Below are positions 1,601 through 33,131 of a DNA stretch of 64,000 bases, one piece after another. Position numbers and translations under genes: made by a program. The notes beneath the pieces were generated by a model. It was not told the origin of the DNA and did no database searches. It worked only from the letters and a program-made list of their open reading frames with translations. This DNA is from Symsagittifera roscoffensis. Taxonomy: Eukaryota. The number at the start of each line of letters is the position of its first letter. The first letter of the stretch is position 1. Location: NCBI RefSeq assembly GCF_963678635.1, contig NC_087064.1:45921437-45985436 (forward strand), given 5' to 3'.

Positions 1601-1974
1601 TAATAAGATATGTAAACGCAAGCCATGTGAACATTAGGCATTTTAGCTTGATTCAAATTTTATTGTTCCAAATTAAAACATACAGATTGACTTAACTAAA
1701 TAATTTAATCCTAGGAATAACTTTAAAAAGGTGATAAAATTGGAAAAAAATTCGTCAATGACAAACTATAACCAAAAACGAATTTCCGAAAAAACGTTTT
1801 AATGATTATGTGATACTCTTAGATACTCATAAGCTTTAATCTCAATCAATTTGATTTAAAAAAGTTTTTTAACTGTAAATACTTTGAATTTCAGTCGTAT
1901 AGACTTGATGATGCTAGTTATTATTAAAACTTTACTGACTTATGAATAAGAAAAACATTAATTTCCAATAAGCT

Positions 1975-4871: not shown

Positions 4872-4927
<56 letters not shown>

Positions 4928-4929
4928 GC

Positions 4930-4966
<37 letters not shown>

Positions 4967-5022
4967 GCTGTTGTTGTTGTTGTTGTTGTTAATGTTGTTG
5001 TTGTTGTTGTTGGTGGTGGTGG

Positions 5023-5077
<55 letters not shown>

Positions 5078-9934: not shown

Positions 9935-11620
9935 CCTTATCTTCAGATTCTGAAAAGAAAAGAAAAACGCCATCTCCACAGAAACCGGCCGCAAAGAGAT
10001 TAGACATAAAGCACCCCAGAACAAAACTCACCAGAATCTAGACGTTCTCCTAGGACTAGAAAAAGCGCACTCACTATAAAACTAGAAAATCTCAATCCGA
10101 TTAGCCAAATGTCGGAATCGAAAACGTCCGCAATAGTTGTATGCAGCATCGAGGAAACCGACACGCATAACAACATGCCCAACGAGACCAACAAAAACCA
10201 AGACACCCAAACAACTGATACGAAGAAGAACACAAAAGGACAAATCCTTTCGGATGGAATCACGTGTACAAAAAAAACAAGTGGATACTTCCAAGTCAGA
10301 AAATACAAGATCCAAAGAACCAAATACGCCGCATTTACACTCTCTCACCACAAAGACAAACAAATTCTTTATACATTCTCGACAGACCGAAAACGACAAA
10401 AAAATCCATTTAGCAAAAATTTTGAAACAGAAATGAATATTCTGCCTTCTATCTCCCCGGTCCGGGGTAACTCGATGACGTTCCAAAGAGAACGTGAAAC
10501 TCATATAGGACAATAACGTATCCAGAAAAAGAACCACAACAAACAAAAAACATCAATAGAGCCCCAATTAACGTGGACAAAACGTCAGACGCTAAAAAAT
10601 ATAACGACACGACGAAGAAAAGAGAGCAAAATTGATAGACTCAATTGTTCAAAAAGAGGGAAACCTTGTCCATCCCGATTTTACAGAAATACAACTAATG
10701 ATTATGAACCATACTAAAACACCAATTGGTAACTCTACTTTATTTATAGGTTTTATTGATTAGCGTATAGAAGTATGATGGTTAAATAAGTATAGACAAA
10801 AGTACTAGTTCTTGTAAGAGACTGTCTCTCAAATGAGTCGAGATCAGTGTCACCCAGACTTAAGCAGATAAGTGAGTTTAAATTGCTATTTAACCTGTTT
10901 TATTCAATCAAAGTTAGATGTTGCCAACGTAACTATGGCTTACCCTCACCTAACTGATGAGAGTATAACATGGCGCAGCCAGCAGTTTTGAAAAACACTC
11001 TCGAAAATACTCCACTGCGGCAAAAAGCCTCGGTAGAAACATTAACTGTGGGGGATATTTGCAATCAGCTGTTATTTCTGGTAATCATAGCCAAAGATGG
11101 TAGTAATCTGCAGAAATTTCATGGACCAGCAACACCAACACAAAAATCTCAGCAACCAGGTAACAAACTACCATTCAACGGGGAACCAAAACACAAGTTA
11201 GAGGTTGAGACCTGGGAAATTAGGAAAAAAGAATACAAGGGGAGAATCAATGTCAACTTCTGGACAATCTAGGACCAACTGTAGACGATTTACCGTGGGA
11301 ACAAGCGGACATGAAAAATCGCAGCTATTTTTATTTGTGTCTAGGGACAGAGGCCAAAGGCGGCAAAAAAAACCTCACTCGAACCTGAAGATACAAAATC
11401 TAACAACTAGATTTCTATGTACAGACTAGAAACAATGTCTTTAAAAAACCGAAAAAAGTATCATTTGACAGATATGAAGCGTTCACGCGCAAGCAGGGAA
11501 AAACGGAAACATTGGAGCAGATCCCCTGCGGCTTAACAGAACTCGTAGTAATAGGAAACTTCAAATGCACAACTTGTAGCGACGGAGGACGTGAGGCAGA
11601 AATTGACAGAGACCTATTCA
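9935..11620 (+). repeat. 1.68-kb sub-repeat, the founder unit of the 37.6-41.3-kb tandem array. The identical copy is at 17,946-19,631. It contains a purine tract at 9,952-9,967 and a CA|TGGCGCAGCC junction at 10,969-10,980.
   Basis: Array junction ...gaaattgacagagac|tttatcttcagattctg joins the equivalents of 11,620 and 9,935. The embedded ORFs (MSESK..., MAQPAV..., MRPGKL...) are T-poor compositional artefacts. Confidence 0.7.
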
Positions 11621-13559
11621 CAGGCAATGTGTTCAACGATGAAGTGCAAAAAGATCTGCTAGCGGAAAAGAATCTCCCGAACAAGCGTTATTTGTCAGTG
11701 TCTTCAGAATTTCTGTCAATTCCTCTGGAGTGCAAGCTCTGTAGATGTTTGTGCGATTGCTTTTGATAGAATTACTGATAATATCGTGCCACAACACCAC
11801 TTGACGTTTTTCTGCTAGAGATGCCCTGCATAGTGGGTTTGAGAGGTTTTTCTGCGAGTTCGTGGTGTTCGAGTTAAAGGAAAGTCACGGAATAGCCGAT
11901 ATTTTGGGCAGAAATTGTTCCTTCTCCGGGTTGCTAAGATATTCCAGGCTGTGGTAGAAGGAATTAGCCGCTACAATGTAGACCATTTCAATTCTAACAT
12001 TTTTTTAAAAAACCAAAAATCCAAAGGAAAAATTAAATTTACAATTCTTTGTAGGAGAGACTGTAATTGAGACTTGGCTCAACGCCGTAGAGTTTTAGAA
12101 TTTTACAACTAAATAAGTTGAGACCTACATCTAAATAAATTGTCTGACAGAGTTTTTGAAAAAATATAAATTGACTCAGTTTACTCTATTTTTGCAATTT
12201 CTTCGTGGTCTTGCAAAAAAAATTTAGCAATATAATCATGTTAACTATCTTTTGCTTAAAACTTAGACGATGCTTTGTGGTACATTCCTAAGTTTTAAAA
12301 GCAGAACTAAACAACTACAAAAAACAATTTGGTAAGCATTAAATTGAAAAAAATTGAAAAATGAAAAATATCTTTTACAATACCGCGTGAGTTTATTTCA
12401 GTTCAATTGAAAAACTCCCAGCCGATTGCAACTAAAACTCCTAATCTTTCTTATTCTCAATATTTCCCATCAAAAAGAATAAAAAATAATTACATTACTC
12501 TGAAATTTTTGCTGCAAAGCCGCGTGAATTTAACTCAATTCGATTGAAAAACTCCTAGCCGATAGCTTTCATAAAACTATTTTGGATTAACTGCAAAGTT
12601 ATCCGGATAAAAAACCAAACTGCTGTATTGTTTTTTGTGGCTCTCATTATCTTTTTCAATGGTCTATTATGTTTCAGCGCAATTGCTTTTGTTTTTTTTT
12701 GAAATTTGGTAATGAAATTTTGAATTTAGTTTTATAATGAAATAAATTAACGTGACTCTTTAGCACTTTTCTCTAATTTTCTTAATTTTTTTTATAAAAG
12801 TGTGCTTTCTTTGAAAAACTATATATACTTCGAAATAATTAACTTCAGTAAATAGCAAGGCTAGCCGGTAGTTATGCAAGTAAACTAAGCAATTCCGCAG
12901 AAAATTTGCGTCTACAAAAAAACTTGAAAACAGTTGTTTCTGTTAGGTAATGAGCGAATCTATACAAAAACCTAAGAAATAAGCATATTTTGAGGTTAAT
13001 GTAGAATATGCGTTTCTGATAACGTTTTTTTCGAAATTTTTAACAAAAAAAAACAAATAAAAAAAAACAAAAAAAAAAACAAAAAAAACTTCAATAACTC
13101 ATAATATTGGAGAAAAATGCAGTTTTTTTATTTTTTTTGCGTATTACATTTTCGGATTAAGAAGATACGACGATATGTGCCCATACTAACAGAGTCTTCT
13201 CGCGGTGTAATGTTTCAGCTGAAACGATCTAAACGCCTGAAAGCTGAACAAAATTTCTTCTATCAAAATTGCATACTGGTCAATACTTTAAAGATAGACG
13301 TGAGGGTTTATTGTGGTCTCAAACAGCTACTACTGAGGAAATTCTGGTTGAAATTTGGAGAATTTAATGAAAATGACAAGTGCACGTGGAAAATTGGGTG
13401 CGATTGTGCGGCGAACAACTGCCAGGACCCCACGTGGAAACACAGAAGCCATCCCACTACTACTACTACTAATTTTTACGGACGTAGTTGTGCATAGTTC
13501 TGATAACTTTTCAAACCATGCATCGAATCGCTGCGCTAATTCTACCTAGGAGATGGCTA

Positions 13560-13918
13560 CGCACACTTCTTACAAGAACTGATGTATGGCGACCTCTGTT
13601 AAAATATTTGAATTACTTCAAAAAAAGGTAAGAATGGCATTTGTCGAGCTTTTTTTTATTGATAAATGCTTGAATAATGATATAATTCCCCATTTTCTTG
13701 AGTTCCGTGTTCCCAAAACTGATTTTTTCTCTGAGCAAGCCGTTCTAAATTTTAAGAAAAGACTACTGAGAGATGAGATGAGAAAGTCGAAAGCTAATTT
13801 GGTTCAGCTACTGTAAAAGTTGTTGATGAAAGTAGTATCGTTTTATCCAAAAAAGTGATAAAAAGTGGCTGCCATCGGTAGTTTTCAATTTACGTCAAAA
13901 TGTCAGCACAATCATTGT
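13560..13918 (+). pseudogene. PLE-1 N-terminal-domain fragment, cut by the tandem-duplication junction. The intact continuation is at 21,570 onwards.
   Basis: ORF 13586-13816: MATSVKIFELLQKKVRMAFVELFFIDKCLNNDIIPHFLEFRVPKTDFFSEQAVLNFKKRLLRDE. This motif block is shared with the PLE-2 N-terminus. Confidence 0.55.
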
Positions 13919-16900
13919 AACAAACAAAAAGCTCTGTAAGTGTTTGTGCGATGGATGTTGATAGAATTACTAATAATGTCGTGCCACACCACCTTTTGAC
14001 GTTTTTCCACTCCTGCAGAGTATGTTTGAGAGGTTTTTCTGCGAGTTCGTGGTATTCGAGTTTAAGGAAAGTCCCGGATTAGCCAATTTTTTGGGAAAAA
14101 AGTGTTCGTTTTTTGGGTTGCTAAGTTGTTCCAGGCGCTACAATGTACACCATTTCAATTCTAACAGGCTATTCTAACAAATCATAATTCTAACCAGGGC
14201 TCCATACAAGAATAGAGAGATCAAAAAATCTTACAGTTCACACAGACTTTTTTGAAACGTGGACAACAACGCGGCAACAACGTGGACGGCTTTATCCTAG
14301 CTCAACATTCAAGAAAAAATAGAAAACGAAGTACGGTCTCTGATTGACCAGGGACACATGACTCGCTGAAAAAATGAAGTGACCAGCAGTTTTTTAGTCA
14401 CATTGTAATAACTGTAAAAAACTATCCAACATTGAAATTGGCAATGAATTCAAAACAAGTAAGCAAATCGTTCTATGAAAACAAGCATCGAATGCCTAAC
14501 ATTGACGTTTTGCTTGACAAAATTGAACACTTGCCCATGAAGTTTGAAACAAACCAAATACAACATACTTTTTCAACAATAGACGTATGCTACGAACACA
14601 GACAACTGACAATAGACAATGACAGCCGGCTGCCATCAGACACAAAAACACATACGCATTGTAATTTTAGTTTTATCAGTGGTAGAGCTACAAAAAACTT
14701 TCAGTTCCAAACGGGACCCTACGGGCTTACAGATATGTGCGCATAATTGTAAAAAACGAATACAGCACAATCCCTATGCAAAAGATAACATAGGAAAATT
14801 ACAAAACCCTACAGCCTTCAAATGGCTCAAAAGCTTCATTGGCTCCATTCATCATTTAAATAATTCCTACCAAACTTAGCCCAATAGTGTAGGGCCATTT
14901 TTACCTACAACAAATTAATTCCACTGTGGATGAAACGCTGATCGCAAAAAAGCATTTAAAAAAACATTACATGCAGTACAAAACATCACCGAAAGCAGAA
15001 TTTTTGTAAATGATAGGGAGACGCGTATTGTATGCAACGCAAGTCGAGAAGGAAGAGAGGCGACTCTCGAACAAATTACACTGCACGGCTGGGCAACAAT
15101 TGCATATGCGTCGCGCTTCCTAATCTCTTATGAACACAAACATTCAATCAACGAAGTGGAACTCTTGGCAGCAGTCTGACAGATTTTTCACACTAAATAC
15201 AGACCACTAAGCAATAGTAAATGCTTTAGAAAGTAACAGGGGAAACAAAACCTATCAAAACCGTTGAATCAGGTGGATCGACAGACGTTTTTTGTTCAAT
15301 TTTGATATAAAAACAGCTAGGAGGCAGTAAAAAGGGTATCTTTTACGACTACGAGAGGAAAACTTCTCCCCAGCAAACTGGGAAGAACATTTTGTCATTA
15401 CATTAATCCCCGACTTCGTCAATTGTTTAGAATTTGAAAATAGCAGTGCTGCAAATATTTTATTGAACAATTCTCTAACCGGATATTTCGGCACGAAGAA
15501 GTCAACCTGAACGAAATATTTAAACCTTCACATTCGATTCAAATGCAAACAGCATTCACCGTTAAAATTCAATCTTTACACACTAGACGCTCAATAGCCT
15601 TGCAACATTCCGTTCCAAGTTCTTTTGAAATTCTAAAAAAGCGATAAAATGCACAGACCTTTTATACAATGATTGCCATTAACACCGTTCAAAAGAGTCA
15701 CATAAAAATGCCACAAAGGCAGTCAAGCACAATTATCAATCGCACAAACCAATTACGCCTCTTTATTGAGTCTCTTGCCAAATAACCTCCGCCCAAACTA
15801 ACAATCAGCGAAGTCAAACACCAAGCGATCCCTGCGGTCGGAACCTTCACCTTCTGAAGAGTCCAGAATGAGAAAGCGGACGCGACTTGCCAAAGATTAG
15901 AGGAGGGGAGCGCTGTAGGAAGAAGACATTCCACTCTTCTGGAAAACTTGTGAAGAGTAATAGACATAGACTTCATTACAGCGGCCACAAAAAAGCTGGA
16001 GTTTTGTCTCCAATCGTCAACATGGTCAAGCAGCAGAAATGGGACAACCAAGGATTGTTATAGAACCTACTTTTACAACGTGCGGCACCGCCTGTCGTTT
16101 AGGGACAACATCTTACTTAACGACTATAGGGTCGTGATACCGAGGGCTATACTAGTGGATGCAATGCATTCAACCCACCTGGGAAAAAATTGATGGCAGC
16201 CAAACACGTGTGGTAGCCATTCTTACACCGCGACGTAGTCTCCACCACTTAAAACTGTAAAAACTATCGAGACAAGGGTAAGGACTTTGAAGTGATATCA
16301 GACAAGCAACACTATACCACGCTTGGCATGTTGGTAGAACCTAACAAAGAATACCAATTGGATTTCGCGGGAACTATCCGAAACAAGGAAAAGGATTTAT
16401 AGTGGTTGTAGAATAATTCTCCTGTTTCCATTCGGTCAAGGTGCTTACAAATAATAATGCGGATACAATCATCTGATTTGTGCAAAATCACCTTATCAAT
16501 CATCGTGTGAACAGGCACAAAACATACGGTGCGACCAGGCACAAAACTATAGGGCCAAAAAATGTGTTTTTCACTGTAAAATTAACAAGAACAAAACTAA
16601 TATATATACCATTAGATGACCATAAGTCAATGGGTTTGTTGGAAAGGCTTATTAGAACTGTGAAACCAAGATTATAGGTAATAAGAATCGACAAAACAAA
16701 CAGGTCGTATAAACTTGCGTCGGAAGTGGCAGAGCTGATTTAAACACTTCAAATTACGCGACCACTAAGATTACGCCATTTGAAGCCCAAAATGTCAGAA
16801 AACACACCACTGAGTAACATCAGCGCCTCACCAAAACTTTCAAACCTTTAATGCTAAAACAAGAAACTTTCATATTTACATTCAAAAATAACTAATAAAG

Positions 16901-19900
16901 CCGGCATTACCAGCGGAGGCCAGGCGGGACCGAGAGAAAAACAGCGAGGACGTTCTAGTCCTGATGTACAGAGATACATATGCGCCAGAACCCAGAGAGC
17001 ATACATACCTACCAGAGCCAACATATAACCCACCCAATGAGAAGACTGCCACAACGACTATGGAGGACACAGTTGAAAACAGTCACAAAATAAATGCGAC
17101 AACGAAACCTGGGAAAAAAGAATTCAAAGGACCAATCAAAACGTGGATGCGCACCTTAAAAAATTTCCGGTGGGTGCGTAGCTTTCATTTTCTAACCAGC
17201 CTTATGACCTGAAAAATTTTAAGCACGCCTTCTCAAGTGAAAATATATTAAACGACAAAGGACCTAGAAAAGCCAAAAGGGCGCAAACCAATAAAACACT
17301 CACAGAACAAGAAAAGCAAAACCTCGAAATAGCACCACTAGTTTTCCTACAGGACCGCTTCAAAGGTCCAGCGCACACGATTGACCCAAAAACGGGACAT
17401 TGAATAGCCAGGAAAACGAGACCAGTTCCACGAAAAACGAAAAATCAAGGCACATTTGAAACTCAAATTAAAATATCCAAACGGGTCAAAATTAACTACT
17501 CAACACACCGCGTGGATCAGGGCAGACGGCAAACAACCGCGAGTAATTAGACACGATGGTCTTGCATTCATACGAGACGCAAGCGTCTACGGAAAATGAA
17601 GACCTGTGACGCTGATGGATTTTGTAGTTTATAAACATCAACCAAGAGCCAAATCTCATGTCTTAGGAGAGCGCAAACTTGCTGACAGGTGACCCTCCAA
17701 ACAGACCGCCACAACCACCAGTCCTGTGCGACCACCCCCAAAATCTATCTGAGAAGTCATTCAGCAATCGATTAACCGCAGGGCATTGGATCCACAAAAG
17801 TTGTTCGAATCTTTTGTATCGAAGACAAAACGGCCCCAAAAAAACCCAAGGACGACGAATCACAAATAAAACAACAACAAACCATACTACGAGGAAAAAT
17901 GAGCCCCAAGAAGCAATCCAGAGTACTCATCAGTCAAATTGAGTTCCTTATCTTCAGATTCTGAAAAGAAAAGAAAAACGCCATCTCCACAGAAACCGGC
18001 CGCAAAGAGATTAGACATAAAGCACCCCAGAACAAAACTCACCAGAATCTAGACGTTCTCCTAGGACTAGAAAAAGCGCACTCACTATAAAACTAGAAAA
18101 TCTCAATCCGATTAGCCAAATGTCGGAATCGAAAACGTCCGCAATAGTTGTATGCAGCATCGAGGAAACCGACACGCATAACAACATGCCCAACGAGACC
18201 AACAAAAACCAAGACACCCAAACAACTGATACGAAGAAGAACACAAAAGGACAAATCCTTTCGGATGGAATCACGTGTACAAAAAAAACAAGTGGATACT
18301 TCCAAGTCAGAAAATACAAGATCCAAAGAACCAAATACGCCGCATTTACACTCTCTCACCACAAAGACAAACAAATTCTTTATACATTCTCGACAGACCG
18401 AAAACGACAAAAAAATCCATTTAGCAAAAATTTTGAAACAGAAATGAATATTCTGCCTTCTATCTCCCCGGTCCGGGGTAACTCGATGACGTTCCAAAGA
18501 GAACGTGAAACTCATATAGGACAATAACGTATCCAGAAAAAGAACCACAACAAACAAAAAACATCAATAGAGCCCCAATTAACGTGGACAAAACGTCAGA
18601 CGCTAAAAAATATAACGACACGACGAAGAAAAGAGAGCAAAATTGATAGACTCAATTGTTCAAAAAGAGGGAAACCTTGTCCATCCCGATTTTACAGAAA
18701 TACAACTAATGATTATGAACCATACTAAAACACCAATTGGTAACTCTACTTTATTTATAGGTTTTATTGATTAGCGTATAGAAGTATGATGGTTAAATAA
18801 GTATAGACAAAAGTACTAGTTCTTGTAAGAGACTGTCTCTCAAATGAGTCGAGATCAGTGTCACCCAGACTTAAGCAGATAAGTGAGTTTAAATTGCTAT
18901 TTAACCTGTTTTATTCAATCAAAGTTAGATGTTGCCAACGTAACTATGGCTTACCCTCACCTAACTGATGAGAGTATAACATGGCGCAGCCAGCAGTTTT
19001 GAAAAACACTCTCGAAAATACTCCACTGCGGCAAAAAGCCTCGGTAGAAACATTAACTGTGGGGGATATTTGCAATCAGCTGTTATTTCTGGTAATCATA
19101 GCCAAAGATGGTAGTAATCTGCAGAAATTTCATGGACCAGCAACACCAACACAAAAATCTCAGCAACCAGGTAACAAACTACCATTCAACGGGGAACCAA
19201 AACACAAGTTAGAGGTTGAGACCTGGGAAATTAGGAAAAAAGAATACAAGGGGAGAATCAATGTCAACTTCTGGACAATCTAGGACCAACTGTAGACGAT
19301 TTACCGTGGGAACAAGCGGACATGAAAAATCGCAGCTATTTTTATTTGTGTCTAGGGACAGAGGCCAAAGGCGGCAAAAAAAACCTCACTCGAACCTGAA
19401 GATACAAAATCTAACAACTAGATTTCTATGTACAGACTAGAAACAATGTCTTTAAAAAACCGAAAAAAGTATCATTTGACAGATATGAAGCGTTCACGCG
19501 CAAGCAGGGAAAAACGGAAACATTGGAGCAGATCCCCTGCGGCTTAACAGAACTCGTAGTAATAGGAAACTTCAAATGCACAACTTGTAGCGACGGAGGA
19601 CGTGAGGCAGAAATTGACAGAGACCTATTCACAGGCAATGTGTTCAACGATGAAGTGCAAAAAGATCTGCTAGCGGAAAAGAATCTCCCGAACAAGCGTT
19701 ATTTGTCAGTGTCTTCAGAATTTCTGTCAATTCCTCTGGAGTGCAAGCTCTGTAGATGTTTGTGCGATTGCTTTTGATAGAATTACTGATAATATCGTGC
19801 CACAACACCACTTGACGTTTTTCTGCTAGAGATGCCCTGCATAGTGGGTTTGAGAGGTTTTTCTGCGAGTTCGTGGTGTTCGAGTTAAAGGAAAGTCACG

Positions 19901-21947
19901 GAATAGCCGATATTTTGGGCAGAAATTGTTCCTTCTCCGGGTTGCTAAGATATTCCAGGCTGTGGTAGAAGGAATTAGCCGCTACAATGTAGACCATTTC
20001 AATTCTAACATTTTTTTAAAAAACCAAAAATCCAAAGGAAAAATTAAATTTACAATTCTTTGTAGGAGAGACTGTAATTGAGACTTGGCTCAACGCCGTA
20101 GAGTTTTAGAATTTTACAACTAAATAAGTTGAGACCTACATCTAAATAAATTGTCTGACAGAGTTTTTGAAAAAATATAAATTGACTCAGTTTACTCTAT
20201 TTTTGCAATTTCTTCGTGGTCTTGCAAAAAAAATTTAGCAATATAATCATGTTAACTATCTTTTGCTTAAAACTTAGACGATGCTTTGTGGTACATTCCT
20301 AAGTTTTAAAAGCAGAACTAAACAACTACAAAAAACAATTTGGTAAGCATTAAATTGAAAAAAATTGAAAAATGAAAAATATCTTTTACAATACCGCGTG
20401 AGTTTATTTCAGTTCAATTGAAAAACTCCCAGCCGATTGCAACTAAAACTCCTAATCTTTCTTATTCTCAATATTTCCCATCAAAAAGAATAAAAAATAA
20501 TTACATTACTCTGAAATTTTTGCTGCAAAGCCGCGTGAATTTAACTCAATTCGATTGAAAAACTCCTAGCCGATAGCTTTCATAAAACTATTTTGGATTA
20601 ACTGCAAAGTTATCCGGATAAAAAACCAAACTGCTGTATTGTTTTTTGTGGCTCTCATTATCTTTTTCAATGGTCTATTATGTTTCAGCGCAATTGCTTT
20701 TGTTTTTTTTTGAAATTTGGTAATGAAATTTTGAATTTAGTTTTATAATGAAATAAATTAACGTGACTCTTTAGCACTTTTCTCTAATTTTCTTAATTTT
20801 TTTTATAAAAGTGTGCTTTCTTTGAAAAACTATATATACTTCGAAATAATTAACTTCAGTAAATAGCAAGGCTAGCCGGTAGTTATGCAAGTAAACTAAG
20901 CAATTCCGCAGAAAATTTGCGTCTACAAAAAAACTTGAAAACAGTTGTTTCTGTTAGGTAATGAGCGAATCTATACAAAAACCTAAGAAATAAGCATATT
21001 TTGAGGTTAATGTAGAATATGCGTTTCTGATAACGTTTTTTTCGAAATTTTTAACAAAAAAAAAAACAAATAAAAAAAAACAAAAAAAAAAACAAAAAAA
21101 ACTTCAATAACTCATAATATTGGAGAAAAATGCAGTTTTTTTATTTTTTTTGCGTATTACATTTTCGGATTAAGAAGATACGACGATATGTGCCCATACT
21201 AACAGAGTCTTCTCGCGGTGTAATGTTTCAGCTGAAACGATCTAAACGCCTGAAAGCTGAACAAAATTTCTTCTATCAAAATTGCATACTGGTCAATACT
21301 TTAAAGATAGACGTGAGGGTTTATTGTGGTCTCAAACAGCTACTACTGAGGAAATTCTGGTTGAAATTTGGAGAATTTAATGAAAATGACAAGTGCACGT
21401 GGAAAATTGGGTGCGATTGTGCGGCGAACAACTGCCAGGACCCCACGTGGAAACACAGAAGCCATCCCACTACTACTACTACTAATTTTTACGGACGTAG
21501 TTGTGCATAGTTCTGATAACTTTTCAAACCATGCATCGAATCGCTGCGCTAATTCTACCTAGGAGATGGCTACGCACACTTCTTACAAGAACTGATGTAT
21601 GGCGACCTCTGTTAAAATATTTGAATTACTTCAAAAAAAGGTAAGAATGGCATTTGTCGAGCTTTTTTTTATTGATAAATGCTTGAATAATGATATAATT
21701 CCCCATTTTCTTGAGTTCCGTGTTCCCAAAACTGATTTTTTCTCTGAGCAAGCCGTTCTAAATTTTAAGAAAAGACTACTGAGAGATGAGATGAGAAAGT
21801 CGAAAGCTAATTTGGTTCAGCTACTGTAAAAGTTGTTGATGAAAGTAGTATCGTTTTATCCAAAAAAGTGATAAAAAGTGGCTGCCATCGGTAGTTTTCA
21901 ATTTACGTCAAAATGTCAGCACAATCATTGTAACAAACAAAAAAATG
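13919..21947 (+). repeat. 8,011-bp tandem duplication, copy 2. It runs straight on into PLE-1 copy c.
   Basis: As above. The junction aacaaacaaaaa|gctctgtaagtg at 13,918 corresponds to aacaaacaaaaaaatgaacgctgaattgc at 21,947. There the sequence continues into the P unit instead. Confidence 0.9.
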
Positions 21948-24010
21948 AACGCTGAATTGCTAAAATTGTCAAATTTCTAGGGAAAAATTCGTTAAAAAAG
22001 TTGGATGATATTAAATTGCCAATTTTTGACGAAGAATTTCTTTCGTATGTCCCAAAACATGCGATTAAGGATATGCTTAATCAAATTCATTTCCTAGCCG
22101 ATATTGACAAATTAGTTAGAAACCTGCGTGAGAATGGAATAGAGGAGGAAAAACTCTGTGGAATAGTAGCCTCCTAAAATTTGTACGCAAGGAACAACAG
22201 AGAAACACCAACTGATCGTGCACTTCTAAGAATGGTGAAATGTTTGAACGAAAATGATTTTTTTAGGTACCTTATGATAAAGGCAAGGGTATTTGTGTTA
22301 TGAAAAGGAAAACTTAAGACAAAAAACTACAAGAAATATTGAATAGTCAACAGTTTACAGAAATCGAAACTGGCACTGATATTTTGATTGTGAAAGTAAA
22401 AGAAGATATTAATAACACACTACTCGAATTGGAAAAAAACGCAGAACTAACTTAAAAATAAGTGATAAAGTTTACTCAAAACTCAGAACTAACGGAGCTC
22501 AGCCTGCTGAGTAATACGGTTTGGGTAGAGTAAGTAAAAAAGAAATACCACTCCGTCCGGTTCTATCAATTTTTGGTAGTAGTTCTCTAAACTGAAGAGC
22601 TTTTTGACCCTCCTTTTTGAAAAAAAACTTTCTGGCGCAAACATCGAAACATCTACGTTAGACGCTCGAGAAAAACTCGAAAAATTAATACTCGACGAAA
22701 ATGAACAAACTGTTTCACTAGACGTTAAGAGTCCCGTATTGGAAGCAATTGAGATTGCATTACGTAAATTGTATAGAACTGATTACGCACCAGATTTTAA
22801 AGTGCTGCTTAAGTTAGCAGTGACAAAAGTTTATTTCAAAAGCAATGGAAAAGGGTATTGCCAGAAGGATGGGTTAGCCATGGGTGCATCACTGGCAGTA
22901 ATTTCGGCTAATTTATGGATGCAATTGTACGAACAAAGAATGAACGATAAAAACGATGGCATAAAGCAAATAACATAAATAAACTCAAAAAAGTCCAAGA
23001 GGCAGCAAAAATTTTGTATGAAACAGCAAAGGTGTTGAACAGTGAAAAATGTGAAAAATGGTTTCATGCTAATTGTCAAAACATCAGTAAAGACGAATAC
23101 CAAAAAATGGGTGATATATATTGGTACTGGGAATTCTGTCGTAATTTACCAGACATTTCAACTTGTGTTAAGGAAAGAAAACCGTTCGAAAGATACAAAG
23201 ACGACAAAATTTGTGCAGTCAAAGGGGACTCAAACACGTAAATTAATAGGGTGAACTGGTTGCATTAGAACTTACCTTTTACTATAAAAAAGCCAACGAA
23301 AAAGAAGAACTTGCTTTTTTGGACATGAATATTGTTCAAAGGAAGATCACCAGCAAATGGTATCAAAAAACAACTGATACTGAAACTACTTTGAACTTTC
23401 ATAGCTGCGAACCCCTCCAGTACAAAAAGAACCTTACGGAAGGAAAATAACATAGGTTGTTTCGATATACCATTAACTGGAAGAAATTTTACAAAGCGTT
23501 AAAAACCAACGAGGAAATTGAGAAGAAAAATAAGTACCCAGAAGCCTGGACATCAAAAAAATAAAAACTACATTGAAAAGAAATCACAAACGAAAAATCA
23601 TAAACTTCACAGAAAGCAAAAACAGAAAGCAGTCGCGAGAAAATTGACAAAATGATGTTTTTTCTACAGCATCGAGGAAACTTAAGTTTGAAATCGACAG
23701 AAAAATTTCAAAGATCAAACCCGGTATTGATCATTTTCACGACGCGCAAAAAAATTGCCCGCCGTCGCTTAAGTCAACTTTTGATTGCAACCTGAAGTCT
23801 CATGTGGTTTATGAAACAAAATGTAATGAACATAGTTCAACTTATGTTGGGCAAACATGCCGAAATCTAACCATACGCATAACAGAGCATCAAAAGAATG
23901 ATTCGCCAGAAAGACAGCATGTCGCAGAATGCTGTGGACAATCTAAGGCTTTTGAATGGAGATTAATTGACAAAGGCAATGATGTTGAAAAATTACTAAC
24001 CTTATAATAA
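21590..24010 (+). mobile_element. Penelope-like element PLE-1, copy c. This is the most complete copy: N-terminal domain, RT, zinc-finger linker and GIY-YIG. It is degraded by stops and frameshifts.
   Basis: 21,599-21,829 is the N-terminal motif ORF. 21,975-22,140 reads FVKKLDDIKLPIFDEEFLSYVPKHAIKDMLNQIHFLADIDKLVRNLRENGIEEEKLCGIVAS. 22,508-22,594 reads YGLGRVSKKEIPLRPVLSIFGSSSLN. ORF 22,604-22,978 has SLDVKS and motif B. 23,014-23,241 has CEKWFHANC...YWYWEFC. 23,804-24,007 is the GIY-YIG. Confidence 0.7.
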
Positions 24011-25162
24011 GATATGTAAACGCAAGCCATGTGAACATTAGGCATTTTAGCTCGATTCAAATTTTATTGTTTCGAATTAAAACATACAGATTGACTTAAC
24101 TAAATAATTCAATCCTAGAAATAACTTTAAAAAGGTGATAAAATTGCGAAAAAATTCGTCAATGACAAACTATATCCAAAAACGAATTTCCGAAAAAACG
24201 TTTTAATGATTATGTGATACTCTTAGATACTCATAAGCTTTAATCTCAATCAATTTGATTTAAAAAAGTTTTTTAACTGTAAATACTTTGAATTTCAGTC
24301 GTATAGACTTGATGATGCTAGTTATAATTAAAACTTTACTGACTTATGAATAAGAAAAACTTTATTTTCCAAAAAGCTTCAGTTGTTTCTGCGATGTTTG
24401 TCCATAGACTGCCATAGGAGGTTTTCACTGAAGATTGGTAGAAAAAATTCTTTAACTTTTTTTTCACAGTCAAATAAGTTAAACTGCTGTTGGTAAGGAT
24501 TGCATTTGTGCTTTCAATTTGATTCCATACAAAAACTAAAATTTTGAAAAAACAGTTTTCGATAAAATGAACGCTGAATCTTCGAAGGAAGAGTAATTTG
24601 ATGGCTCTCCTGTTCCCGTCACTTGTGAGGTTCTCGTAATTGATTCTCGTATTGCTGGTAGTAGATTGTCTTTGATTTTCTAGAGATGACATACTAATTA
24701 CCAATTACGAAACCTTGAAATTGGTAGTGCATAGTGCTTAAAACTCAGATCAGCTGATGCATCATTTTATTTCCGATACACAAGAGGGCTTAATTGTCCA
24801 GTTTAGTTGTTTCTCAAGTCATATTTTCAATTACTTTGTTATACCACTCAGAAGTATTGCTGGGTAACACAAATTGCATATGACTAAAGCATTCTTAAAT
24901 AGTATTTGTTTCAATTTGTTAGCGGTCAATGGAGGTAATGCTTTGATACCGCTGGCCATTTTTCCTAATATAAATTTAATTTCACCTTGAAATGTGAGGA
25001 ATTGATCAGCAGTTAACCCTAGATTCAGATGAAAAACCATTTTGTTCTCTTCCCGAAGCATTAACCCTGGCAGATGGACTTTTATTTGTATTCGTAAAAA
25101 AATGTCGTGCAAACCCTAAATTTAATATGGTGAGGTGAACACCCCACTGGCATATCCACAAA

Positions 25163-25285
25163 GTCATAATAATAATCATAATAATAATAATCATAAAAAT
25201 AATTATAACAATAATCATAATAATAAAAAAATTAAAATCACAAAAATAGTATTAATAATAATAATCACATTAATCATGATAAAAA
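25163..25285. repeat. AT-rich minisatellite, the same family as 2,596-2,790
   Basis: Direct reading. Confidence 0.8.
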
Positions 25286-25369
25286 TACTCATAGTAACCC
25301 TAATATTTACAAAAAGGAGTCAAAAAGTTTCCGTATATTTAGAAAATTTGTTTGATTAACTGTGGCTTA

Positions 25370-27554
25370 CCCTCACCTAACTGATGAGAGTATATAATGG
25401 CGCAGCCAGCAGTTTCGAAAAAAACTCTCGAAACATTTCCATCGCGGCAAGAAGCCTCGGTAGAACCATTAACCGTGGGGGATATTTGCAATCAGCTGTT
25501 TTTTTTGGTAATCATAGCCAAAGATGGTAGTAATCTGCAGAACTTTCTTGGACCAGCAACACCAACACAAAAACCTCGGCAATCAGGTAACCAAATACCA
25601 GTCAACGGAGATCCAAAACACAAGTTAGAGATTGAGACCTGAGAAATTAGGAAAAAAGAATACAAGGGGAGAATCAATGTCAACTTCTGGACAATCTAGG
25701 ACCAACTGTAGACGATTTACCGTGGGAACAAGCGGACATGAAAAATTGCAGCTATTTTTATTTGTGTCTAGGGACAGAGGCCAAAGGCGGCTAAACAAAC
25801 CTCACTCGAACCTGAAGATACAAAACCTAACAACTAGATATCTATGGACAGACTAGAAACAATGTCTTTAAAAAACCGAGAAATGTATCATTTGACAGGT
25901 ATGAAGCATTCACGCGCAAGCAGGGAAAAACGGAAACATTGGAGCAGATCCCCTGCGGCTTAACAGAACTCGTAGTAATAGGAAACTTCAAATGCACAAC
26001 TTATAGCGACGGAGGACGTGAGGCAGAAATTGACAGAGACCTATTCACAGGCAATGTGTTCAACGATGAAGTGCAAAAAGATCTGCTAGCGGAAAAGAAT
26101 CTCCCGAACAAACGTTATTTGTCAGTGTCTTCAGGATTTCTGTCAATTTCTCTGGAGTGCAAGATCTGTAAATGTTTGTGCGATGGCTGTTGATAGAATT
26201 ACTGATAATATCGTGCCACAACACCACTTGACGTTTTTCTGCTAGAGATGCCCTGCATAGTAGGTTTGAGAGGTTTTTCTGAGAGTTCGTGGTGTTCGAG
26301 TTTAAGGAAAGTCACAGAATAGCCGATATTTTGGGCAGAAATTGTTCCTTTTCCGGGTTGCTAAGACGTTCCAGGCTGTGGTTAGCCGCTACAATGTAGA
26401 CCATTTTAATTCTAACATAATTTTCAAAAAACCAAAAATCCGAAAAACAAAGGAAAAATTAAATTTTTAATTCTTTGTAGGAGAAACTGTAATTGAGACT
26501 TGGCTCAACGCCGTAGAGTTTTACAATTTTACAACTAAATAAGTTGAGACCTACATCTAAATAAATTGTCTGACAGACTTTGAAAAACTATAAATTGACT
26601 CAGTTTACTCTAAGTTTGCAATTTCTTCGTGGTCTTGCTGTATTGTTTTTTATGGCTCTCATTATATTTTTCTATGATGTATTATGTTTCAGCGCAATTG
26701 TTGTTGTTTTTTTTTGAAATTTGGTAATGAAATTTTGAATTTAGTTTTATAATGAAATAAATTAACGTGACTCTTTAGCACTTTTCTCTAATTTTCTTAA
26801 TTTTTTTTATAAAAGTGTGCTTTCTTTGAAAAACTATATATACTTCGAAATAATTAACTTCAGTAAATAGCAAGGCTAGCCGGTAGTTATGCAAGTAAAC
26901 TAAGCAATTCCGCAGAAAATTTGCGTCTACAAAAAAACTTGAAAACAGTTGTTTCTGTTAGGTTATGAGCGGATCTAAGCAAAAACCTAGAAAATAAGCA
27001 TATTTTGTAGTAAATGTAGAATATGCGTTTCTGATAATGTTTTTTTTCGAAATTTTTATCAAAAAAAAACAAATAAAAAAAAAAAAAAAATTTCCATTTT
27101 TTGGCAGTTTTTTCAAAAGTTTTAAAAATGAGTTCAAAAAACTTCAATAACTCATAATATTGGAGAAAAATTCAGTTTTTACATTTTTTTTGCGTATTAG
27201 ATTTTCAGATTAGGAAGATACGACGATATGCATGTAAATGTGCCCATACTAACAGAGTCTTCTCGCGGTGTAATGTTTCAGCTGAAACGACCTAAACGCC
27301 TGAAAGCTGAACAAAATTTCTTCTATCAAAATTGCATACTGGTCAATACTTTAAAGATAGACGTGAGGGTTTATTGTGGTCTCAAACAGCTACTACTGAG
27401 GAAATTCTGGTTGAAATTTGGAGAATTTAATGAAAATGACAAGTGCACGTGGAAAATTGGGTGCGATTGTGCGGCGAACAACTGCCGCAGCAAGACGTAC
27501 ATGTGACGATACAATGAAGGGGCCAGGACCCCATGTGGAAACACAGAAGCCATC

Positions 27555-27599
<45 letters not shown>

Positions 27600-28037
27600 A
27601 TTTTTACGGACGTAGTTGTCCATAGTTCTGATAACTTTTCAAACCATGGCGCGAATCGCTGCGCTAATTCTACCTAGGAGATGGCTACGCACACTTCTTA
27701 CAAGAACTGATGTATGGCAATCTCTGTTAAAATATTTGAATTACTTCAATAAAAAGTAAGAATGGCATTTGTCGAGCTTTTTTCTTGATAAATGCTTGAA
27801 TAATGATATAATTCCCCATTTTCTTGAGTTCCATGTTCCCAAAACTGATTTTTTTCCCTGAGCAAGCCGTTCTAGTAAGCCGAGATGAGAAGGGCAAAAG
27901 CTAATTTAGTTCAGCTACTGTAAAAGTTGTTGAAAAAAAATATCGTTTTATCCAAAAAATTGATAAAAAGTGGCTGCCATCGGTAGTTTTCAATTTACGT
28001 CAAAAGGTCAGCACAATCATTGTAACAAACAAAAAAA
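25370..28037 (+). repeat. Diverged (~90%) copy of the Y-Z part of the 8-kb unit (equivalent to ~10,935-13,918). It replaces the distal half of P-unit copy A.
   Basis: ORFs 25,397 (MAQPAVSKKTLE), 25,632, 25,939 and 27,228 are paralogous to 10,970, 11,205, 11,512 and 13,117. 27,600-28,037 matches 13,480-13,918. Confidence 0.75.
27556..27597. repeat. (TAC)14 microsatellite. The paralogous sites 13,456-13,473 and 21,469-21,486 have (TAC)5.
   Basis: Direct reading: ctactactac... Confidence 0.9.
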
Positions 28038-30100
28038 ATGAATGCTAAATTGCTAAAATTGTCAAATTTCTAGGGAAAATTTCGTTAAAAAAGTTGGATG
28101 ATATTAAATTGCCAATTTTGACGAAGAATTTTTTTCGTATGTCCCAAAACATGCGATTAAGGATATTTTTAATCAAATTCATTTCGTAGCCGATATTGAC
28201 AAATTAGCTAGAAACCTGCGTGAGAATGGAATAGAGGAGGAAAAACTCGGGGGAATAGTAGCCTCCTAAAATTTTTACGCAAGGAACAACAGAGAAACAC
28301 CAACTGATCGTGCACTTCTAGGAATGGTGAAATGTTTGAATGAAAATGATTTTTTTTAGGTACCTTATGATAAAGGCAAGAGTATTTGTGTTATGAAAAG
28401 GATAACTTAAGACAAAAAACTACAACAAATATTGAATAGTCAACAGTTTACAGAAACTGGCACTGATATTTTGATTGTGAAAGTAGAAGAAGATATTAAT
28501 AACACACTACTCGAATTGGAAAAAAACGCAGAACTAACTTAAAAATAAGTGACAAAATTTATTTCAAAACTCAGAACTAACGGAGCTCAGCCTGCTGAGT
28601 TATACGGTTTGAGTAGAGTACATAAAAAAGAAATACCACTCCGTCCGGTTCTATCAATTTTTGGCAGTAGTTCTCTAAACTGAAGAGCTTTTTGACCCTC
28701 CTTTTTGAAAAAAAACTTTCTGGCGCAAACATCGAAACATCTACGTTAGACGCTCGAGAAAAACTCGAAAAATTAATACTCGACGAAAATGAACAAACTG
28801 TTTCACTAGACGTTAAGAGTCCCGTATTGGAAGCAATTGAGATTGCATTACGTATATTGTATAGAACTGATTACGCACCAGATTTTAAAGTGCTGCTTAA
28901 GTTAGCAGTGACAAAAGTTTATTTCAAAAGCAATGGAAAAGGGTATTGCCAGAAGGATGGGTTAGCCATGGGTGCATCACTGGCAGTAATTTCGGCTAAT
29001 TTATGGATGCAATTGTACGAACAAAGAATGAACGATAAAAACGATGGCATAAAGCAAATAACATAAATAAACTCAAAAAAGTCCAAGAGGCAGCAAAAAT
29101 TTTGTATGAAACAGCAAAGGTGTTGAACAGTGAAAAATGTGAAAAATGGTTTCATGCTAATTGTCAAAACATCAGTAAAGACGAATACCAAAAAATGGGT
29201 GATATATATTGGTACTGGGAATTCTGTCGTAATTTACCAGACATTTCAACTTGTGTTAAGGAAAGAAAACCGTTCGAAAGATACAAAGACGACAAAATTT
29301 GTGCAGTCAAAGGGGACTCAAACACGTAAATTAATAGGGTGAACTGGTTGCATTAGAACTTACCTTTTACTATAAAAAAGCCAACGAAAAAGAAGAACTT
29401 GCTTTTTTGGACATGAATATTGTTCAAAGGAAGATCACCAGCAAATGGTATCAAAAAACAACTGATACTGAAACTACTTTGAACTTTCATAGCTGCGAAC
29501 CCCTCCAGTACAAAAAGAACCTTACGGAAGGAAAATAACATAGGTTGTTTCGATATACCATTAACTGGAAGAAATTTTACAAAGCGTTAAAAACCAACGA
29601 GGAAATTGAGAAGAAAAATAAGTACCCAGAAGCCTGGACATCAAAAAAATAAAAACTACATTGAAAAGAAATCACAAACGAAACATCATAAACTTCACAG
29701 AAAGCAAAAACAGAAAGCAGTCGCGAGAAAATTGACAAAATGATGTTTTTTCTACAGCGTCGAGGAAACTTAAGTTTGAAATCGACAGAAAAATTTCAAA
29801 GATCAAGCCCGGTATTGATCATTTTCACGACGCGCAAAAAAAATGCCCGCCGTCGCTTAAGTCAACTTTTGATTGCAACCTGAAGTCTCATGTGGTTTAT
29901 GAAACAAAATGTAATGAACATAGTTCCACTTATGTTGGGCAAACATGCCGACATCTAACCATACGCATAACAGAGCATCAAAAGAATGATTCGCCAGAAA
30001 GACAGCATGTCGCAGAATGCTGTGGACAATCTAAGGCTTTTGAATGGAGATTAATTGACAAAGGCAATGATGTTGAAAAATCACTAACCTTATAATAAGA
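27690..30100 (+). mobile_element. Penelope-like element PLE-1, copy d. It is ~98-99% identical to copy c, with a ~21-bp deletion in the N-terminal motif region.
   Basis: ORFs 28,692-29,066 (RT), 29,102-29,329 (zinc finger) and 29,892-30,095 (GIY-YIG), all at +6,088 from copy c. Confidence 0.7.
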
Positions 30101-31235
30101 TATGTAAACGCAAGCCATGTGAACATTAGGCATTTTAGCTCGATTCAAGTTTTATTGTTTCGAATTGAAACATACAGATTGACTTAACTAAATAATTCAA
30201 TCCTAGAAAGGTGATAAAATTGGGAAAAAATTCGTCAATGACAAACTATATCCAAAAACGAATTTCCGAAAAAACGTTTTAATGATTATGTAATACTCTT
30301 AGATACTCATAAGCTTTAATCTCAATCAATTTGATTTAAAAAAGTTTTTTTAACTGTAAATACTTTGACTTTCAGTCGTATAGACTTGATGATGCTAGTT
30401 ATAATTAAAACTTTACTGACTTATGAATAAGAAAAACTTTATTTTCCAAAAAGCTTCAGTTGTTTCTGCGATGTTTGTCCATAGACTGCCATAGGAGGTT
30501 TTCACTGAAGATTGGTAGAAAAAATTCTTTAACTTTAATTTCACAGTCAAATAAGTTAAACTGCTGTTGGTAAGGATTGCATTTGTACTTTCAATTTGAT
30601 TCCATACAAAGACTAATATTTTGAAAACACAGTTTTCGATAAAATGAACGCTGAATCTTTCAAGGAAGAGTAATTTGATGGCTCTCCTGTTCCCATCACT
30701 TGTGAGGTTCTCGTCACTGATTCTCGTATTGCTGGTAGTAGATTGTCTTCAATTTTCTAGAGATGACATACTAATTACCAATTACGAAACCTTGAAATTG
30801 GTAGTGCATAGTGCTTAAAACTCAGATCAGCTGATGCATCATTTTATTTCCGATACACAAGAGGGCTTAATTGTCCAGTTTAGTTGTTTCTCAAGTCATA
30901 TTTTCAATTACTTTGTTATACCACTCAGAAGTATTGCTGGGTAACACAAATTGCATATGACAAAAGCATTCTTAAATAGTATTTGTTTCAAATTGTTAGC
31001 GGTCAATGGAGGTAATGCTTTGATAACGCTGGCCATTTTTCCTAATATAAATTTAATTTCATCTTGAAATGTGAGGAATTGATCAGCAGTTAACCCTAGA
31101 TTCAGATGAAAAACCATTTTGTTCTCTTCCCGAAGCATTAACCCTGGCAGATGGACTTTTATTTGTATTCGTAAAAAATGTCGTGCAAACTCTAGATTTA
31201 ATACGGTGAGTTGAACACCCCACTGGCATATCCAC

Positions 31236-31335
31236 AAAGTCATAATAATAATCATAATAATAATAATCATAATAATAATCAAAACAATAATCATAATAAT
31301 AAAAAAATAAATATCACAAAAATAGTAATATTAAA
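31236..31335. repeat. AT-rich minisatellite, same family
   Basis: Direct reading. Confidence 0.8.
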
Positions 31336-32058
31336 AATAATCACATTTATCATGATAAAAATACTCATAGTAACCCTAATATTTACAAAAAAGAGTCAAA
31401 AATTTTCCGTATATTTAGAAAATTTGTTTGATTAATTACAAAAAAAACGAAAAACATATTAATTCTTAGGTCGAGAGTTTGACCGTAATAAGCATAATAA
31501 AACATAATTGAATTCAATTTTTGTTTCACTGAGATGCAGAGTAACTGACTTTAAACTAAGAGTGTATAATCTGGCAAATTTTCGCTTAACTTTTTCTAAA
31601 AAGCGTTAAAATTGTAAAGTCAAGCAAACGCTTTTGCTTATTTTTTTTGCATCTTCAGATTTCAAAAAACTAAACTACTCTGTACAAAATGATCAAAAAT
31701 CCTAAAAAGTGTCATTCGAGTCATTTCTTTCAAATTTAAAAAACTTAAGCAATCAAATTTCACAGATATAACTAAAGTTTTGTTAGAAGCATGATGTAAC
31801 AATTTCAATAATTTACAATTTCTTTTTGTTGCTAATTTCATGCTATCAAGTAAGTGATTTAAATAGTGTAAACTCCCTACTTCAAACTCATCGCGCGCAA
31901 GAATTGCTGGTCTCCCATTCCTATTGTTACACTACTAGTTTGTGCAATCAGAAATGCCAGTTCTCCAGATGTGTTTGGTGTCTTTATTGTGAACTGTATA
32001 ATATGATGTAGTAATTTTGCTGCCAGCAGCACCTCTTCAGGATCACCCTTTACTGTTT

Positions 32059-32517
32059 TCATAATATCTTTAATGTAACGGAGAAAAAGTTAGCCTGCTG
32101 CACTGATTTATTTTTCTCCCTTATCGCGGTGCATTTTCTGCAGTACCAGTCGGTTTCACTTATATTTCGATGCTCATCAAATGATATATCACCGCATTTT
32201 ACGTAATACGAGTTCAAAAAGCATGGGCATCCCACACCTTTTGACTTGTACGTGACCTTCTTATTGCACTCGAGACATATTCCATTAAGTTCTTTTTCGG
32301 GCAAAAACCTTTCACGAACATCCCCCCGAAAGTTCAGTTTCGTACTGCTTCAGCCAAAGGTTTGCTATAAAACGACAATAGTTGCCCTTTTTGCCGAACC
32401 ATTTTTTCTGAACATACTATGTTTCACTGCACTTGAAATGGACTTGACTAACTACCATATTAGTTTTTTTTTCATGGTTCTCTGTAACTGCTGTTGTTGT
32501 TGTTATTGTTGTTGACG

Positions 32518-32603
<86 letters not shown>

Positions 32604-32614
32604 ATTGTTGTTGC

Positions 32615-32657
<43 letters not shown>

Positions 32658-32659
32658 GC

Positions 32660-32705
<46 letters not shown>

Positions 32706-33131
32706 GCTTTTGTTGTTGTTGTTGGTGTTGTTGTTGTTTTCTGTCCCCTGAGACTTGGGTATTTTATTGCCGAAGGCCAAAACTTCTCATCTACACCCCT
32801 CTGTACTGCGCCTTTCGCCTTTTCCAGTTTTCCCTTGAAGTTTTTCTCATCTGTCCTTGCCTTGGTTAATCTCCGTTCCTAAAATTCTTGTCTGAAAATT
32901 ATGTACCGCTTGGTCCGAAAACATCCCATTTTGCGGTACCCTCAACCTCAAAAAATTATGTATATTGTCGTTTTCGAGACATCCTCTTGGAAATTTACCA
33001 CGCTGGTGGCAGTTGATAAATATAAAATATATGGATGCATAATCACAGACTAATTTCCAAGTGCGTGTCTTTTTAAGGTCCAAATCAAGTTTGGAGGTTC
33101 GAGGCCTCGAGGAATAAACCTCATGTGACAC
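32059..33131 (-). mobile_element. PLE-2 copy in P-unit B. It has the N-terminal domain, the (AAC)n tract and the C4HC3 finger. It lacks the 860-bp 5'-RT segment that is present at 3,940-4,800.
   Basis: Minus ORFs 32,847-33,131 and 32,059-32,304 are paralogues of 5,207-5,491 and 3,539-3,784. The sequence at 32,440-32,490 joins directly to the microsatellite. Confidence 0.6.
32491..32737. repeat. (GTT)n microsatellite, the paralogue of 4,856-5,097 with different length and variants
   Basis: Direct reading. Confidence 0.95.

Follow-up and report, generated by a model that had tools for sequence, protein, structure and literature searches.

A Penelope-like element fossil with a PHD finger inside its reverse transcriptase, probably dead before duplication, in a 64-kb stretch of Symsagittifera roscoffensis DNA

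In a stretch of 64,000 nucleotides from Symsagittifera roscoffensis (RefSeq assembly GCF_963678635.1, contig NC_087064.1, forward-strand positions 45,921,437 to 45,985,436; hereafter the window, in whose own numbering coordinates are given) we find decayed copies of a Penelope-like element (PLE), which we call PLE-1, and our analysis centres on copy A, which has the whole coding footprint. The comparisons presented here make it very probable that copy A (21599 to ~24081, plus strand) is a pseudogenised canonical PLE with a C-terminal GIY-YIG endonuclease (EN), that it is of the Penelope/Poseidon type and of a sublineage carrying a PHD finger within the reverse transcriptase (RT), and that the insertion had died before it was passively duplicated. 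A first-pass annotation, made from the letters of the window, had proposed an endonuclease-bearing (EN+) PLE with a GIY-YIG domain at 21590-24010, and this identification is borne out by matches to intact PLEs. The coding footprint is spread over three reading frames, and a hand-stitched, frameshift-corrected translation searched against 5.8 billion proteins matched 13 of them, the best being the intact P0001 (708 amino acids (aa), E = 2.6e-156) and P0002 (859 aa, E = 9.9e-147), both of which are annotated with RVT_1, PHD and GIY-YIG domains. In a frameshift-aware alignment copy A covers residues 7-832 of P0002 with 362/789 positions identical (46%), and its identity to intact PLE proteins is 45-48%. 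The annotation had also proposed a comparison with the GIY-YIG profile, and here the fragment 23756-24004 alone reaches 25.4 bits with Pfam PF01541, above the gathering score of 22.6; in the intact relatives RVT_1 (PF00078) scores 33-34.5 bits, with a gathering score of 29.6. Given the E-values to intact PLE proteins and an endonuclease above its gathering score, the PLE-1 signal in copy A is far beyond chance.

Each of the peptides quoted in the first-pass annotation, from the N-terminal block to the GIY-YIG domain, could be located in copy A and mapped to coordinates there (all on the plus strand), and frameshift-aware alignment brings out the domain order that it stated in every copy. This order is N-terminal block (N-block), GxK, DKG, RT motifs 1-4, PHD finger, RT motifs 5-7, thumb and GIY-YIG. 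The N-block (21668-21766), made up of FIDKCLNNDIIPHFLEFRVP (21668-21727) and FSEQAVLNF (21740-21766), lies within the sole intact piece of the open reading frame (ORF; 21599-21829), and is followed by a region of the GxKF/Y type (22049-22108; the motif name is taken from PMC8557442) that holds VPKHAIKDML (22049-22078) and HFLADID (22088-22108), and reads LSYVPKHAIKD where relatives have LSLGPKHP. Next comes the DKG motif VPYDKGKGICVM with its core VPYDKGKG (22267-22302), a motif that has been described in PLE reverse transcriptases (PMC8557442) and is diagnostic of them. The RT fingers and palm (22515-22921) comprise YGLGRVSKKEIPLRPVLS (22515-22568), motif 3(A) SLDVKS (22715-22732) and motif 4(B) QKDGLAMGASLAVISANLWM, the QKDGLAMGASL..ANLWM peptide (22862-22921). 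The spelling of the first of these with an H in the annotation is that of copies B and C, while copy A itself has an S, and in all PLE-1 copies the LYTNVP that follows SLDVKS in relatives is deleted. Between RT motifs 4(B) and 5(C) sits a degenerate PHD finger (22990-23139; Pfam PF00628, 21 bits) with the peptide CEKWFHANC...WEFC (23041-23139), after which motif 5(C) (23185-23226) shows RYKDD in place of RYVDD in copies A, B and C. The peptides LAFLDMNI, WYQKTTDTETTLNFHSCEPLQYKK and NKYPEAWTS mark RT motifs 6-7 and the thumb (23310-23555), and a precomputed annotation places PF26215 (HTH_animal) on the relatives. The RT-EN linker, with a single Cys, and the GIY-YIG domain take up 23756-24081 (Pfam PF01541 and alignment), the domain being assigned to 23801-24004 and its peptide VVYETKC..YVGQTCR..EH to 23801-23932. 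The tail of the endonuclease, IIRYVNASHVNIRHF...RIK, is frameshifted and ends at ~24081 in a separate frame, so that the proposed extent of 21590-24010 has to be amended to 21599 to ~24081. The intact relatives possess the PLE-specific C-x2-C pair in the GIY-YIG core (VVYKLSCSGCTSTYVGQT..RH..EH); the window copies read VVYETKCNEHS(S/A)TYVGQT, with the first Cys retained and the second a His (KCNEH; 23822-23833 and the equivalents in B and C), which may be either a mutation that the copies share or a trait ancestral to the family.

In agreement with the first-pass annotation no copy is intact. Copies A, B and C all carry stops and frameshifts, with 9 in-frame stops and ~11-12 frameshifts in copy A between 21600 and 24004 (and more stops from 24005), 11 stops and 11 frameshifts in its sister copy B (27714-30169, plus strand), and 4 stops and 8 frameshifts in copy C (1-1677, plus strand), which is cut by the window start and is without the equivalent of 22060-22453 and of another 27 bp. 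These three copies had been recognised before; self-comparison of the window adds a partial fourth that had been overlooked, copy D, a 5' fragment consisting of the N-terminal ORF only (13586-13930, plus strand, with homology over 12621-13930). The annotation had further held that lesions differ from copy to copy and that a consensus of the copies would give a near-complete EN+ PLE, and neither claim survives comparison of the copies. At least 8 stops or frameshifts are common to every PLE-1 copy that covers them: lesions at P0002 positions 206, 253 and 291 are found in both A and B, the sole copies covering these positions, and lesions at positions 338, 502, 569, 578 and ~590 in A, B and C. 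A, B and C also have in common the deletion after motif A, the change to YKDD and the loss of PHD cysteines. A majority consensus of the copies was built and is left with 8-11 stops, 9-12 frameshifts and a longest stop-free stretch of 131 aa, although the domain order can still be read by frameshift-aware translation. Because the lesions are common to the copies and the consensus is still broken, the PLE-1 insertion was, on this evidence, already dead before it multiplied. Substitution divergence within the ORF is 2.2% between A and B and 3.8-3.9% between A and C or B and C. Between A and B the substitution divergence at codon positions 1, 2 and 3 is 2.4%, 2.2% and 2.0%, and synonymous to non-synonymous counts between copies are 8:31 and 13:41; these figures therefore point to neutral decay of the copies after duplication.

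The way in which the dead insertion multiplied can be read from its surroundings. Homology between A and B (20632-25359 versus 26636-31435) extends for 4.7 kb around a coding footprint of 2.5 kb in the self-comparison of the window, and copy C (1-2593 in this comparison) matches A at 21976-24996, minus 22060-22453. The upstream flank (20632-21598, plus strand) is duplicated with PLE-1 in A, B and D and differs between A and B by 3.4%, versus 2.2% in the ORF. The downstream flank (24082-25359, plus strand) is duplicated as well, in A and B up to 25359 and in C up to 24996 and then again over 25144-25359, with a divergence of 2.8% for A-B and 5.0% for A-C. The copies thus share ~1 kb of upstream and 0.9-1.3 kb of downstream flank. 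They also share neighbours: the same 1.28-kb repeat precedes copies A, B and D, and PLE-2, a second and diverged PLE fossil, lies downstream of both B and C. Moreover, an 8.0-kb tandem duplication (5918-13930 / 13929-21943, 99.96% identity) has one junction, at 21943, inside PLE-1, which makes copy D, whose stretch 12621-13930 is a 99.9% duplicate of 20632-21943. Since homology exceeds the footprint, neighbours are shared, flank divergence is about that of the ORF and substitutions are equal across codon positions, the PLE-1 copies by these comparisons descend from a single dead insertion through segmental or tandem duplication, and not from independent transpositions.

Several observations concern the edges of the duplicated block. 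The upstream flank contains a repeat breakpoint at 21159 and, ~115 bp upstream of the PLE-1 start codon, an (ACT)n microsatellite with 5 units in A (21469-21484) and 14 in B (27557-27598). PLEs have been reported to prefer microsatellites for insertion, and the (ACT)n tract could mark the 5' junction of PLE-1. An AT-rich, degenerate (ATAATAATC)n-like array closes the shared downstream flank (25148-25324, ~2657-2871 and ~31220-31435). The upstream flank occurs a fourth time, in a copy that stops at 43181, a breakpoint that matches 21159 and 27199; an empty site was sought past this point, where the sequence matches nothing else in the window, and without an empty site in the window the ends of the PLE-1 element are left undefined. 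The flank ORFs at 21130-21510 and 24336-24704 (minus strand) gave zero Pfam matches, and an exact 24-mer scan of metagenome contigs with the GIY-YIG region found no further PLE-1 copies.

Of the other accounts of these copies, the one that fares best would have the PLE fossil amplified as cargo of a larger mobile unit, for example a non-autonomous element of the long terminal repeat (LTR) type with 1.28-kb terminal repeats at 18941-20225 and 25357-26638. Copy A and its flanks are indeed bracketed by these two direct repeat copies, which are 93.6% identical, the repeat reads TGTGG just inside its start and has a TATATAA box, a dead Gypsy/BEL-like pol adjoins, and an array of the form LTR-internal-LTR-internal is the classic product of unequal LTR recombination. 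Elsewhere in the window, however, the 1.28-kb segment is joined to other sequence and forms part of 1.68-kb tandem duplications (37595-41327), no target-site duplications, primer-binding site or polypurine tract were identified, and copies B and C run into PLE-2, not into a second repeat, so that we consider this account unlikely. Very unlikely is the model implied by the first-pass annotation, in which the copies arose by independent retrotransposition, acquired lesions of their own and yield the active element as their consensus. Private lesions do exist (a stop at 22512 only in A, a stop at 23448 that is not in C, several frameshifts found only in C) and the copies are 94% identical with gaps counted, but for these copies the model is refuted by the at least 8 lesions common to all covering copies, by the 8-11 stops and 9-12 frameshifts that the majority consensus keeps, and by shared flanks that reach 0.9-1.3 kb and further to either side and have diverged about as much as the ORF. 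That the PLE-1 ORF still functions through introns, selenocysteine recoding or a variant genetic code we regard as next to impossible, for although introns can persist in PLEs and UGA is read as selenocysteine in some Naiad PLEs (PMC8557442), the 2483-bp footprint amounts to 827 codons versus the 859 aa of P0002 and leaves no room for an intron, the inspected stops (21827, TAG near 22260, 22175, 22315 and 22512) are all TAA or TAG, the residues to which the stops align differ (A, Y, L, I, P and V), there are ~11 frameshifts, the catalytic YVDD is YKDD, and codon positions evolve neutrally.

Passive duplication of a dead insertion also took in the neighbouring PLE-2 (3429-5437, minus strand), which likewise bears a PHD finger and is 3'-truncated, with thumb and EN absent. 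Its identity is 55% to P0002, over residues 119-596, and 35% (aa) to PLE-1, and its PHD finger keeps all eight ligand positions. A second, internally deleted PLE-2 copy (31949-33077, minus strand) lies downstream of copy B just as PLE-2 lies downstream of copy C. The first-pass annotation had noted the N-block in PLE-2 too, and it is recognisable there in degraded form (CFENDNIHNFLRLREP). The pattern F-L-x-x-C-x4-[LIV]-[IV]-P-x-F-L-x-F-[KR]-x-P followed by a helical segment occurs in 38/38 aligned full-length relatives, and in a structure model of P0002 the block forms a loop between helices H2-35 and H55-94 (predicted local distance difference test score, pLDDT, 66-88). The block was thus rightly described as family-wide; it is probably not the overlooked domain that it was taken for, because conserved N-terminal motifs N1-N3 of PLEs had already been described (Arkhipova 2006, as cited in PMC8557442), of which N1 may be the N-block.

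The feature that sets the PLE-1 family apart is its PHD finger. The first-pass annotation had seen a C..WFH..C finger, which is present, and had not recognised it as a PHD finger between RT motifs 4(B) and 5(C). On the window PLE-1 the PF00628 profile is matched over positions 14-47 of 47 at 21 bits, which is below the gathering score of 24, and the ligands are partly lost (CESC to SEKC, WYC to WYW). A full C4HC3 finger occupies the same site in P0001 (27.2 bits) and P0002 (26.4 bits), both above that gathering score, and the best sequence matches of the finger in the PDB are to PHD fingers (1wev, MLL1 PHD3, Pygopus and TAF3). An exhaustive phmmer search with P0002 gave 20818 matches at E<=1e-3, and spacing was counted in the matches listed together with the proteins found earlier. 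Among these, 78/86 relatives with both motifs have a motif B-to-C spacing of 34-47 aa, 7/86 have a spacing of 102-116 aa with a PHD-like finger, and one (P0017, 776 aa; 1/86) holds an unrelated low-complexity insert of 224 aa at the PHD site; a PHD finger was found in 13/163 of the listed proteins. In a neighbour-joining tree the PHD-bearing sequences, including the window PLE-1, form one cluster. Considering the spacing classes, the 13/163 carriers, the finger of PLE-2 and the clustering in the tree, the PHD finger is, judged from the sequences compared, a lineage trait of a PLE sublineage. The P0017 insert, in occupying the PHD site, suggests in addition that the gap between motifs B and C tolerates insertions.

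Young members of this sublineage are probably still active, as indicated by large clusters at >=90% identity (242 members for P0002 and 104 for P0001) that lie on long contigs and include intact ORFs, and by the arrangement of the P0002 locus. At this locus (L001) P0002 stands head-to-head with a 729-aa partner copy (3747-5936, minus strand, and 6001-8580, plus strand, ~64 bp apart), and more inverted copies with 97-99% identity are found at 578-2367. Complex inverted arrangements of this kind are typical of PLE insertions. A 113-nt direct repeat flanks the P0002 ORF, and inverted partner copies are present. We found no description, in the searchable literature, of a PHD finger between motifs 4(B) and 5(C) of canonical PLEs. 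In that literature PHD fingers in PLEs are reported only for Chlamys of Chlamydomonas, at other positions (PMC8557442). Tentatively, and with somewhat more doubt than confidence, we propose that PLE-1, PLE-2, P0001, P0002, P0016, P0018, P0020, P0053 and others may make up an undescribed sublineage of canonical, animal-type PLEs with a C-terminal EN. In it a PHD finger would have been gained once, between motifs 4(B) and 5(C) in the palm of the RT; it would include young families with intact ORFs and high copy number, its B-C gap would permit insertions, and the finger could steer integration by chromatin state.

With respect to the known clades, we followed the scheme of Craig et al. 2021 (PMC8557442), which uses the linker, the DKG motif and the position of the EN as criteria. 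The RT-EN linker (..TTRK..C(L/P)PSLKS..) has a single Cys and no CX2-5CxxC in copies A, B and C and in P0001, P0002, P0011 and P0012. With DKG present, the EN C-terminal and a linker free of CX2-5CxxC, the PLE-1 family fits Penelope/Poseidon in this scheme of motif presence and absence. It resembles these elements in its single ORF, its N-terminal motifs including GxK and DKG, its PLE-type RT and its lack of a CX2-5CxxC linker (PMC8557442), and differs from them by a C4HC3 PHD insert of ~65-80 aa between RT motifs 4(B) and 5(C) and, for the window PLE-1, by having no detected hammerhead or pseudo-LTR. Neptune and Nematis, whose GIY-YIG has a CCHH motif, are similar in that RT is followed by a C-terminal GIY-YIG and in possessing DKG and N-terminal motifs; both clades are ruled out under the same scheme by the CX2-5CxxC linker, which is absent from the window copies and their closest intact relatives. 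The Naiad/Chlamys clade (N-terminal GIY-YIG, CxC, DKA/DK) was also ruled out, as PLE-1 has a C-terminal EN, DKG and no CxC domain, and so was the Hydra clade (DKT, no CCHH, CxCX5C linker), given that DKG is present, the GIY-YIG core of the relatives has two Cys, and there is no CxCX5C. Chlamys shares with the PLE-1 family a PLE polyprotein with a PHD finger as accessory domain (PMC8557442), but belongs to the green lineage, has its EN at the N-terminus and carries both a CxC motif and an IFD, whereas the PLE-1 family has a C-terminal EN and the DKG of animal-type PLEs; moreover, the PHD finger of Chlamys lies between RT2a and RT3(A) or within the EN, and not between RT4(B) and RT5(C) (PMC8557442). 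PLE RTs and TERTs are sisters (PMC8557442), and the best PDB matches of the P0002 model are TERT chains (3du5 and 6usr; Foldseek E ~7e-7), with a template-modelling score of only 0.25-0.35 for what is a low-confidence model. Unlike the PLE-1 family, TERT lacks an endonuclease, a PHD finger and the DKG N-terminal motifs.

Some results weigh against the interpretation given here, or against parts of it. Two hallmarks of PLEs are missing. With Rfam no hammerhead was found in the whole window at the gathering score and none in 20000-26700 at E<=10, and no pseudo-LTR, direct repeat or inverted repeat flanking 21599-24081 was found in the window; with both absent, the true ends of PLE-1 are undefined. 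Rfam likewise gave no hammerhead at L001, the P0002 locus, at E<=1, and our own scan for CUGANGA-stem-GAAA yielded no credible hammerhead and a weak chance match at 21346. Minimal PLE hammerheads may escape Rfam models. Matches to CTGATGA..CGAAA at 25381, 38617 and 40300 were rejected, being copies of the repeat with the TATATAA box that have no helix II and no Rfam match. The assignment to Penelope/Poseidon is a call from the presence and absence of motifs, and the neighbour-joining tree that groups the PHD-bearing sequences carries no support values. The structure model of P0002, built from an alignment of 13 sequences, has a mean pLDDT of 64.7 and a predicted template-modelling score of 0.47, and its PHD region scores a pLDDT of only 35-52, so that the model does not inform on the placement of the finger relative to the RT; what the finger does is purely our inference. 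Finally, the 8-kb duplication at 99.96% identity could be either very recent or an artefact of assembly.

On the reading that we favour, the following history may be envisaged. In a live member of the family the product of the single ORF would nick target DNA through its GIY-YIG domain, as in established PLE biology, and the free 3'-OH would then prime reverse transcription of the element RNA (target-primed reverse transcription), while the most plausible task of the PHD finger would be to hold the enzyme on histone H3 tails or chromatin. One PLE-1 insertion would have died first, and would have carried at least 8 stops or frameshifts, the deletion after motif A and the change of YVDD to YKDD. 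The dead insertion with its flanks (~1 kb upstream and 0.9-1.3 kb downstream) would then have been copied passively by segmental or tandem duplication, within a block rich in transposons, PLE-2 and a dead LTR-retrotransposon pol among them, and neutral decay after duplication would have led to copy C, to copies A and B and, very recently, to copy D.

The window as a whole is AT-rich (30-42% GC) with one ORF of at least 180 aa, a profile that fits eukaryotic transposon-rich DNA. The decayed Gypsy/BEL-like LTR-retrotransposon pol (plus strand) lies in the 5.5-11 kb segment at ~6300-9600, with duplicates at ~14300-17600 and ~33900-37300. It shows an RT-like FSTIDVCYEHRQL, an RNase H-like ..IAYASRFL..NEVELLA.. 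and an integrase-like H..H plus core, and has a strong A-over-T skew at 40-42% GC. Copies of the 1.28-kb repeat lie at 10930-12214, 18941-20225 and 25357-26638, with partial ones at 38593-39276 and 40276-40959, and a 1.68-kb unit is duplicated in tandem at 37595-39644 / 39278-41327 (96.9% identity), with a partial unit at 40961-41326. Towards the other end, exon-sized ORFs with WD40 repeats (minus strand, ~47584-59193; for example 53985-54326, PF00400, 36.7 bits) probably belong to a host gene with introns, and a 1.25-kb repeat is present at 55859-57102 and 62755-64000 (98.9% identity), the second copy being cut by the window end.

For this window our results mean that the PLE-1 copies are decayed fossils that were copied along with their surroundings, and that an active element cannot be rebuilt from them. 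The identification as such adds a dead representative of a known kind of element, and wider interest attaches only to the PHD finger within the RT. For annotation there is a lesson in that copies within one window may not be independent, and that shared lesions and flanks should be checked before a consensus is used for rescue. If the proposed sublineage is real, canonical animal-type PLEs would gain an accessory chromatin-reader domain, and the gap between motifs B and C would be an insertion-tolerant site with a bearing on how telomerase-related retroelements choose their targets.

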